Below are positions 32,881 through 37,132 of a stretch of DNA of 64,000 bases, piece by piece. The notes beneath the pieces are model-generated. The model ran no database searches. It was not told the origin of the DNA and was given only the letters and a program-made list of their open reading frames with translations. Both the position numbers and the translations under genes were made by a program. How positions within the stretch are numbered: position 1 is the first letter of the stretch; each line of letters begins with the position of its first letter. Source of the stretch: Escherichia coli (GTDB lineage Bacteria > Pseudomonadota > Gammaproteobacteria > Enterobacterales > Enterobacteriaceae); NCBI RefSeq assembly GCF_041248615.1, contig NZ_CP158426.1, one strand, 5' to 3'.

Positions 32881-32968
32881 AATTTCATCGGGTCCGAATT
32901 TTTGGACCTTTTCTCCGCTTTTCCTTGCTGTCATCTACACTTAGAAAAAAACCAGTAAGGAAACATTT

Positions 32969-33502
32969 ATGCGCCTGCTCCCTCTCGTTGCCGCAGCGAC
33001 AGCTGCATTTCTGGTCGTTGCCTGCAGTTCTCCTACGCCGCCCCGTGGCGTGACAGTAGTGAATAATTTCGATGCTAAACGCTATCTCGGTACCTGGTAT
33101 GAGATTGCCCGTTTTGATCACCGCTTTGAACGTGGACTGGAAAAAGTCACCGCAACATACAGCCTGCGGGATGACGGCGGCCTGAATGTCATTAATAAAG
33201 GCTATAACCCTGACAGAGAAATGTGGCAGCAGAGTGAAGGGAAAGCGTACTTTACCGGCGCACCAACTCGCGCTGCGCTGAAAGTGTCATTCTTTGGTCC
33301 TTTCTATGGCGGTTATAACGTTATTGCACTCGATCGGGAATACCGCCATGCGCTGGTTTGCGGCCCGGACCGCGACTACCTGTGGATACTCTCCCGCACG
33401 CCAACCATTTCTGACGAAGTGAAACAGGAGATGCTGGCAGTCGCGACCCGGGAAGGGTTTGATGTCAGTAAGTTTATTTGGGTACAGCAGCCCGGTAGTT
33501 AG
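32969..33502 (+). CDS. blc: Outer-membrane lipocalin lipoprotein Blc (177 aa)
   Basis: Translation with lipobox LVVAC and a lipocalin fold signature; matches Blc. Its stop codon overlaps the sugE stop codon on the opposite strand by 2 nt. Confidence 0.9.
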
Positions 33503-33816
33503 TGAGTGCTGAGTTTCAGACCAATAATCCCCAATACGATTAACGCCAGACTCGCCAGGCGCATCGGGTTAGCGGACTCGCCGAGCAGCACAATGCCGGT
33601 GATGGCCGCGCCGACTGCGCCAATACCCGTCCACACGGCATAAGCCGTCCCTACTGGTAACGATTTCATCGCCCAGGCAAGTAGCGCCATACTGACAATC
33701 ATCGCCGTCACAGTAATAACACTTGGCGTCAAACGACTAAAGCCGTGGGTATATTTCAGGCCAACGGCCCATACCACTTCCAGCAGACCAGCAATAACTA
33801 AGATAATCCAGGACAT
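33499..33816 (-). CDS. sugE: SMR-family guanidinium exporter Gdx/SugE (105 aa from ATG at 33816)
   Basis: Translation [29 protein letters not shown]... (four-TM SMR protein with conserved Glu); the ORF track extends it to 126 aa from an upstream alternative start. Confidence 0.9.
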
Positions 33817-33832: not shown

Positions 33833-33882
33833 TTGGGGCCGTCCCCGGTGAAAAGAGGCGTTTGCAGGTCGTCCTGCAAAGC
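33833..33882 (-). promoter_or_regulatory. Guanidine-II (mini-ykkC)-like riboswitch in the sugE 5' leader
   Basis: The minus strand reads TTTGCAGG-ACGA-CCTGCAAA, a 14-nt linker, then GGGG-ACGG-CCCC: two GC-rich hairpins each capped by an ACGR tetraloop, ending ~17 nt upstream of the sugE ATG. Confidence 0.55.
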
Positions 33883-33946: not shown

Positions 33947-33985
33947 GCAAAAAAACAAACGGCACGACATAACTGTCGTACCGTT
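33947..33985 (-). terminator. Rho-independent terminator downstream of ecnB
   Basis: The minus strand reads acggtacgacagttatgtcgtgccgt followed by TTGTTTTTTTGC. Confidence 0.6.
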
Positions 33986-36355: not shown

Positions 36356-36364
36356 GCACTGGCG
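36356..36364. repeat. IS1 target-site duplication, left copy (GCACTGGCG)
   Basis: 9-bp sequence immediately flanking the IS1 end at 36365, identical to 37133-37141. Confidence 0.9.
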
Positions 36365-36379
36365 GGTAATGACTCCAAC

Positions 36380-36883
36380 TTATTGATAGTGTTTTATGTT
36401 CAGATAATGCCCGATGACTTTGTCATGCAGCTCCACCGATTTTGAGAACGACAGCGACTTCCGTCCCAGCCGTGCCAGGTGCTGCCTCAGATTCAGGTTA
36501 TGCCGCTCAATTCGCTGCGTATATCGCTTGCTGATTACGTGCAGCTTTCCCTTCAGGCGGGATTCATACAGCGGCCAGCCATCCGTCATCCATATCACCA
36601 CGTCAAAGGGTGACAGCAGGCTCATAAGACGCCCCAGCGTCGCCATAGTGCGTTCACCGAATACGTGCGCAACAACCGTCTTCCGGAGCCTGTCATACGC
36701 GTAAAACAGCCAGCGCTGGCGCGATTTAGCCCCGACGTATCCCCACTGTTCGTCCATTTCCGCGCAGACGATGACGTCACTGCCCGGCTGTATGCGCGAG
36801 GTTACCGACTGCGGCCTGAGTTTTTTAAATGGCGGAAAATCGTGTTGAGGCCAACGCCCATAATGCGGGCGGTTGCCCGGCAT
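36380..36883 (-). CDS. insB: IS1 InsB reading frame (167 aa; expressed as an InsAB' fusion by -1 frameshifting)
   Basis: ORF translation [64 protein letters not shown]... matches IS1 InsB. Confidence 0.95.
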
Positions 36884-37077
36884 CCAACGCCATTCATGGC
36901 CATATCAATGATTTTCTGGTGCGTACCGGGTTGAGAAGCGGTGTAAGTGAACTGCAGTTGCCATGTTTTACGGCAGTGAGAGCAGAGATAGCGCTGATGT
37001 CCGGCAGTGCTTTTGCCGTTACGCACCACCCCGTCAGTAGCTGAACAGGAGGGACAGCTGATAGAAACAGAAGCCAC
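36802..37077 (-). CDS. insA: IS1 InsA (91 aa) transposition inhibitor / N-terminal part of the transposase
   Basis: ORF translation [43 protein letters not shown]... matches IS1 InsA (zinc-finger plus HTH). Confidence 0.95.
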
Positions 37078-37132
37078 TGGAGCACCTCAAAAACACCATC
37101 ATACACTAAATCAGTAAGTTGGCAGCATCACC

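Follow-up and report, generated by a model that had tools for sequence, protein, structure and literature searches.

Convergent blc and sugE of Escherichia coli meet at interlocked stop codons in what is probably an ordinary, evolutionarily frozen overlap

The convergent genes blc and sugE (gdx) of Escherichia coli overlap tail to tail through interlocked stop codons, and the junction is quite probably an ordinary, evolutionarily frozen arrangement without a dedicated regulatory role. In the window, which is the whole 64,000-nt stretch of E. coli DNA that was analysed (RefSeq assembly GCF_041248615.1, contig NZ_CP158426.1), the sequence read directly at positions 33499–33502 is TTAG, such that the two coding sequences overlap by 4 nt including the stops and the stop codons share 2 nt (33500–33501; Table 1). 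This sharing, claimed in a first-pass annotation of the window, was borne out by the sequence, by NCBIfam models of both proteins, and by RefSeq annotation. Blc matches NF007786 with 346 bits (cut-off 267; residues 1–175 on profile positions 1–175 of 176) and SugE matches NF008512 with 193.5 bits (cut-off 126; residues 1–104 on profile positions 1–104 of 104). Because both proteins match their models end to end, neither stop is an artefact of ORF calling, and that source of the stops was rejected. RefSeq shows the same 4-nt overlap of coding sequences for E. coli 042, a strain that matches the window at 100% identity across 1051 bp; of 5426 complete E. coli genomes, 5424 carry this 1051-bp blc/sugE region. 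The true start of sugE is the ATG that gives a 105-aa protein, as opposed to the TTG at 33879 in the mechanical list of open reading frames; the 126-aa ORF that begins at this TTG was rejected as a mechanical extension over the riboswitch. The end of blc carries a tandem in-frame stop, TAG-TGA (33500–33505), of which the TGA (33503–33505) is created by the C-terminal codons of sugE on the other strand.

Since there is no intergenic DNA, each transcript must terminate inside the partner gene, and because each stop sits within the annotated coding sequence of the partner, any translatable full-length blc or sugE mRNA enters the partner coding sequence. The further claim of the first pass, that the transcripts overlap at their 3′ ends, consequently holds for translatable full-length mRNAs; ending before the partner coding sequence is impossible for productive mRNAs and possible only for prematurely terminated transcripts. 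That no terminator lies between the genes was likewise upheld, as there is no room between them and no structure at the junction. Folds of 81 nt (junction ±40 nt) on both strands were no better than shuffled sequences (z = −0.04 and −0.44) and the terminator scan was empty there, such that a hidden terminator at the junction was rejected, and the blc/sugE junction does not qualify as a bidirectional intrinsic terminator. No conserved structure was detected downstream of either stop using sliding RNAalifold windows (330–400 nt, 32 species; best, −4.1 kcal/mol).

Table 1. Positions in the window of the blc/sugE junction and of the features discussed in the text.
Feature	Position	Strand	Description
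Junction	33499..33502	both	blc TAG 33500–33502 (+); sugE TAA = complement of 33499–33501 (−)
blc CDS	32969..33502	+	outer-membrane lipocalin lipoprotein, 177 aa
sugE/gdx CDS	33499..33816	−	SMR-family guanidinium exporter, 105 aa, ATG at 33816
Guanidine-II (mini-ykkC) riboswitch, sugE leader	33834..33880	−	RF01068, 50.4 bits vs gathering threshold 32, E 1.3e-08
Rho region peak, window equivalent	33603	−	inside sugE ORF, 104 nt before last base of stop
Candidate Rho loading site, first 80 nt past sugE stop	33419..33498	−	untranslated, C-rich/G-poor, antisense to blc 3′ end
Antisense-sugE stretch entered by blc transcripts	33503..33816	+	C/G 1.36 overall, windows up to 1.9
Terminator-like hairpin + U-tract, ampC/blc interval	32890..32917	+	GGGUCCGA-AUUU-UUGGACC, dG −12.4, z −2.4
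ecnB intrinsic terminator	33958..33985	−	upstream of sugE promoter; Term-seq 3′ end at MG1655 4376735/6
Hairpin + U-tract (TTTTT tail) inside blc	33138..33175	−	324–353 nt past sugE stop, dG −10.8

The junction belongs to a class of overlaps that has been described in detail. The modal length of gene overlaps in prokaryotes is 4 bp, opposed stops can interlock only where the tetramer is CTAA, TTAA, CTAG, or TTAG, and among the 58 convergent overlaps counted in E. coli an intrinsic terminator was predicted in only 23 of the 116 genes involved (~20%; Lillo & Krakauer 2007, PMC2174442). As a pair of tail-to-tail coding genes joined by the permitted tetramer TTAG, blc and sugE fall within the 4-nt convergent YTAR class; their geometry is identical to that of the overlaps in PMC2174442, with opposed stops interlocked on a shared TA, and there is no difference in kind, the addition here being the measured conservation of the junction across at least 13 enterobacterial genera. 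Judged from that survey and from one 50-kb sample of strain 042 around the locus, in which the gaps at seven convergent junctions were +12, +213, +15, +49, −4, +28, and −18 nt, convergent spacing too short for a terminator is routine. The blc–sugE overlap is therefore an ordinary member of a well-described class, already annotated throughout RefSeq for E. coli, and matters little as it stands.

The surrounding region (31.5–36 kb in the window) has the order frdD-ampC-blc, followed on the opposite strand by sugE-ecnB-ecnA-efp and then by epmB. This copy of blc/sugE is the native chromosomal locus of E. coli beside the chromosomal ampC, and differs from the mobilised module found on plasmids. 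The hairpin in the ampC/blc interval limits read-through from ampC into blc and the junction; it is absent from the list returned by the simple terminator scan. The loop of the ecnB terminator reads CAGTTATG in the window and CAGCTGTG in MG1655 (K-12), with the stem unchanged. Relative to E. coli 042, the 5′ part of yjeJ is interrupted by an IS1 copy of 768–769 bp (36364–37132) that shares 98.8% identity with the IS1A of that strain, and nine bases of 042 sequence (locus L082, 27637–27645) flank the copy on both sides, fitting an IS1 target-site duplication. The collinearity of strain 042 with the window stops near a tRNA-Phe gene, from window position ~48735 onward, where the window sequence differs; beyond this tRNA gene strain 042 carries an integrase-bearing island with a DEAD/DEAH helicase, two DNA methyltransferases, an S8 peptidase, an AAA ATPase, and an SNF2 protein.

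Using a Blc-based scan with one genome per species, 80 loci were recovered, of which 44 had a convergent sugE within 2.5 kb of blc, all of them in the Enterobacterales; a sugE neighbour of blc was found at none of the scanned loci outside this order. The overlap was exactly 4 nt in 40 of the 44 convergent loci, spread across Escherichia, Citrobacter, Enterobacter, Klebsiella, Raoultella, Kosakonia, Cedecea, Buttiauxella, Pluralibacter, Leclercia, Pseudescherichia, Superficieibacter, and Pseudocitrobacter, together with one Providencia plasmid. The four exceptions were Salmonella enterica subsp. arizonae (+16 nt), a Raoultella metagenome-assembled genome (MAG; 0), Serratia grimesii (−7), and S. 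microhaemolytica (+75). In S. enterica subsp. arizonae (locus L012, 3032–3053) the junction has been reopened by a 16-nt spacer (TAG-CGATATCAGCTACAAA-TTA), and the interlocked state can therefore be escaped.

The gene pair also travels on plasmids. A homologue of blc-sugE occurs in 847 PLSDB plasmid records (766 predicted conjugative), of which 834 are at 60–80% identity to the window and are taken here as Citrobacter-type copies of the module found with blaCMY-2. This mobilised blaCMY-2-blc-sugE module of conjugative plasmids is presumably of Citrobacter origin, and contains blc and sugE joined by an identical 4-nt overlap (plasmid locus L008). Several of the PLSDB records, 4.8–4.9 Mb in length, are evidently chromosomes filed as plasmids.

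Among the orthologous junctions, the tetramer opens with T or C and closes with A or G around an unvarying TA core, with all four tetramers (TTAG, TTAA, CTAA, and CTAG) in use, a substitution pattern that is exactly what plain maintenance of two stops predicts. The C-terminus of SugE is always ...LK(L/I)S(T/A)(H/P), while that of Blc is variable (PGS, PGA, PH, KG, HY, NR, and others; 174–177 aa), and because the Blc end varies in both sequence and length there is no dual coding at the junction. No sign of constraint beyond the two stops is apparent from the compared sequences. Loss of a stop is predicted to lengthen the proteins by 47 aa (Blc) and 40 aa (SugE) as medians, and the persistence of the −4 spacing would fit a mutational trap, as opposed to selection for coupling. 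This argument is not airtight, because in approximately one quarter of the species one stop could go at the price of only 1–3 residues, yet the −4 overlap persists. As a separate observation, loss of the blc stop would add only a single residue in 11 of the 40 loci with a 4-nt overlap.

The description of sugE as riboswitch-controlled proved correct, with the match to RF01068 in the leader covering model positions 1–48 of 48 and the window sequence identical to the K-12 leader quoted in PMC7815308; it belongs to the class marked by a pair of hairpins with ACGR tetraloops ahead of a SugE-type gene. In K-12, the dominant 3′ end of sugE is at the first codon, 76 nt from the transcription start site (Adams et al. 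2021, PMC7815308), and a Rho termination region lies within the sugE ORF at MG1655 4377088 (+ strand there; PMC7815308, supplementary file 2). The window equivalent of this peak was obtained by arithmetic from the shared ATG, and the underlying Rho score compares 800-nt windows and has low positional resolution. Reads upstream and downstream of the region numbered 565/67 in untreated cells and 750/745 in cells given bicyclomycin (BCM; Rho score = 8.4, p = 4e-73; PMC7815308), and in LB-grown K-12 the action of Rho lowers transcription of the sugE strand ~8-fold near the 3′ part of the gene. Termination of sugE by Rho is further backed by rhoR66S reporter and northern data (PMC7815308), and by efficiency in vivo sugE stands in the top group of Rho terminators (PMC9160355). 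The downstream BCM read window spans the entire blc antisense region and read-through is full with BCM (K-12, PMC7815308), so it is Rho, and not a hairpin, that keeps sugE-strand transcription off blc. As Rho cuts sugE-strand transcription in K-12 in LB, little antisense RNA extends across blc except on induction of sugE or inhibition of Rho; the BCM experiment represents exponential growth in LB, a condition of weak expression for the RpoS-dependent blc. Term-seq gave no discrete 3′ end on either strand between MG1655 4376877 and 4378959 in LB at OD 0.4, LB at OD 2.0, or M63, and thus none for blc or for full-length sugE, which fits diffuse, processed ends of the Rho type or low expression. 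Adams et al. document the leader and ORF of sugE as a Rho target, with BCM read-through that enters the blc antisense region, and their subject is premature termination as regulation of sugE, not the 3′ overlap with blc.

The composition of the RNA past both E. coli stops would be compatible with loading of Rho, which calls for more than about 50–80 nt of untranslated RNA that is rich in C and poor in G. In 60-nt windows across the first 80 nt past the sugE stop, the C/G ratio is 1.9–2.3, and the antisense-sugE stretch entered by blc transcripts is also C-rich (Table 1). Across 32 species, the median C/G ratio downstream of each stop was about 1.04–1.2, compared to the C-rich RNA of E. coli, and a conserved rut-like composition was rejected, the feature being present in E. 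coli and not across genera.

One expression dataset bears on the relation between the two genes. In strain ZX-1, in which a 20-bp deletion in the P2 hairpin of the riboswitch makes gdx constitutive, strand-specific RNA-seq gave 26029 gdx counts compared to 468 (log2FC = +6.08) and 263 blc counts compared to 1180 (log2FC = −1.89, p = 0.053), that is, 68-fold more gdx RNA and 3.7-fold less blc RNA, in a comparison with one replicate per strain (n = 1), differing plasmid backgrounds, and 11 SNPs plus two deletions in ZX-1 (PMC13064478). The RpoS-dependent genes otsB (log2FC = −2.14), osmE (−2.11), dps (−2.09), katE (−1.35), and osmY (−1.10) fell in the same comparison (PMC13064478). The fall in blc runs in the direction predicted by the first-pass annotation, which had read the overlap as permitting mutual antisense interference between a stress-induced lipocalin and a riboswitch-controlled exporter. 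The fall is not specific, however, because the RpoS-dependent genes fall similarly and blc is itself reportedly RpoS-dependent, a finding said to go back to Bishop et al. in 1995. The ZX-1 data were accordingly rejected as evidence for interference, the decrease in blc being indistinguishable from that of the RpoS regulon. A study of ampC amplification that included blc and sugE deletions contained no expression data bearing on interference. Mutual antisense interference is thus permitted by the geometry and possible, but unsupported.

Other accounts of how the two transcripts end, or of why the overlap persists, were weighed against an ordinary frozen junction. Intrinsic terminators embedded within the partner genes, with the hairpin at 33175..33138 (−) serving sugE and the ecnB terminator, read in reverse, serving blc, are unlikely, even though among E. 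coli genes in convergent overlaps ~20% have an intrinsic terminator predicted within the partner (PMC2174442). For sugE, the hairpin inside blc is the sole candidate of this kind; it ends in a TTTTT tail and lies past the stop (Table 1), but folds no better than shuffled sequences (z = −1.5; 17 of 200 shuffles fold as well), is not conserved, gives no Term-seq peak in any of the three conditions, and lies within a window across which BCM reads downstream equal those upstream (745 compared to 750); it was judged not functional. For blc, the terminator scan returned nothing of the hairpin-plus-U-tract type for the + strand across sugE (33503..33816), and the first strong structure that a read-through transcript would meet is the ecnB hairpin in its + reading, which is stable (dG = −15.4, z = −3.0) but is followed by AUUGCUUA, a poor U-tract. 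Over 2 kb, four terminator-like sites were observed compared to 2.1 expected from shuffles. Alternatively, RNA polymerases from the converging units could collide head-on and so set where the transcripts end, a mechanism put forward for convergent gene pairs of E. coli and documented, for pairs other than this one, by in vitro work and SEnd-seq (Wang et al., bioRxiv 10.1101/2022.10.23.513370). Both cases involve a convergent pair that shares a termination zone, and convergent geometry without a terminator would suit such collisions, but the mechanism of Wang et al. depends on a stem-loop in intergenic DNA, with A and U tracts on its two sides, to position the collisions between the gene boundaries. 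At blc/sugE there is neither intergenic DNA nor structure at the junction. Collision also needs heavy simultaneous transcription, whereas sugE is mostly terminated early in LB and blc is expressed mainly in stationary phase, and the chance that collisions set these ends is very slight indeed.

It is also quite improbable that blc and sugE form a regulatory cis-antisense pair, excludon-like, whose overlap is kept by selection, such that guanidine-induced sugE transcription crosses the 3′ part of blc, stationary-phase blc transcription crosses sugE, and reciprocal repression follows from collision of polymerases or from cleavage of the duplex by RNase III. That the overlap is retained on mobilised plasmid copies and at 40 of the 44 loci, which span many genera, would suit such a pair, as would the persistence of −4 even where loss of a stop costs 1–3 aa, the opposed changes of gdx and blc in ZX-1, and the read-through of the sugE strand across the whole blc antisense region with Rho inhibited. 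That antisense transcript is normally suppressed by Rho, however, and the drop of blc in ZX-1 (n = 1, mixed background) matches the general fall of RpoS-dependent genes. The junction substitutions, too, are those of plain stop-codon maintenance, the junction has changed in S. enterica subsp. arizonae, the Raoultella MAG, and two Serratia species, and no paper on antisense effects between blc and sugE was found in the searchable literature. Excludons, as found in Listeria and S. aureus, are opposite-strand neighbours with overlapping transcripts and reciprocal repression, and are defined by a documented long antisense transcript together with a demonstrated reciprocal effect on expression. The blc/sugE pair is alike in being opposite-strand neighbours with overlapping transcripts, but is known from its geometry and one non-specific dataset. 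The fullest form of the idea, a riboswitch-gated enterobacterial excludon in which selection keeps the overlap, guanidine-induced sugE represses stationary-phase blc and the reverse, and Rho sets the length of the overlap, is very improbable.

The reading preferred here is that of an ordinary junction with stops interlocked on a shared TA, a state that persists across the Enterobacteriaceae. Its persistence would follow from the cost of change, in that any substitution in the shared TA would destroy both stops and the loss of either stop would, in most species, add a long C-terminal tail, so that a double purifying selection would freeze the junction. On the sugE strand in K-12, termination is Rho-dependent and apparently diffuse. 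With the guanidine-II riboswitch off, Rho stops most sugE transcripts in the leader or the ORF, before they reach blc; with sugE translated, Rho would probably load on the untranslated RNA past the stop and terminate transcription within ~100–300 nt, in the blc antisense region. Transcripts of blc may be handled likewise, to judge by the composition of their C-rich extension into antisense sugE. With the two genes on together, the 3′ ends of their mRNAs would then overlap, and interference arising in this way would be a by-product and probably small.

Were specific reciprocal repression to be shown, a riboswitch-gated antisense pair would be added to the biology of E. coli, and the result would have a bearing also on the plasmid-borne blc-sugE module that accompanies blaCMY-2. 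Because guanidine can switch on one partner via a Rho-coupled riboswitch, blc/sugE may serve as a simple test bed for the termination of convergent genes without intergenic DNA. The blc/sugE junction is also a clean example of how interlocked stops freeze gene spacing over long evolutionary distances.
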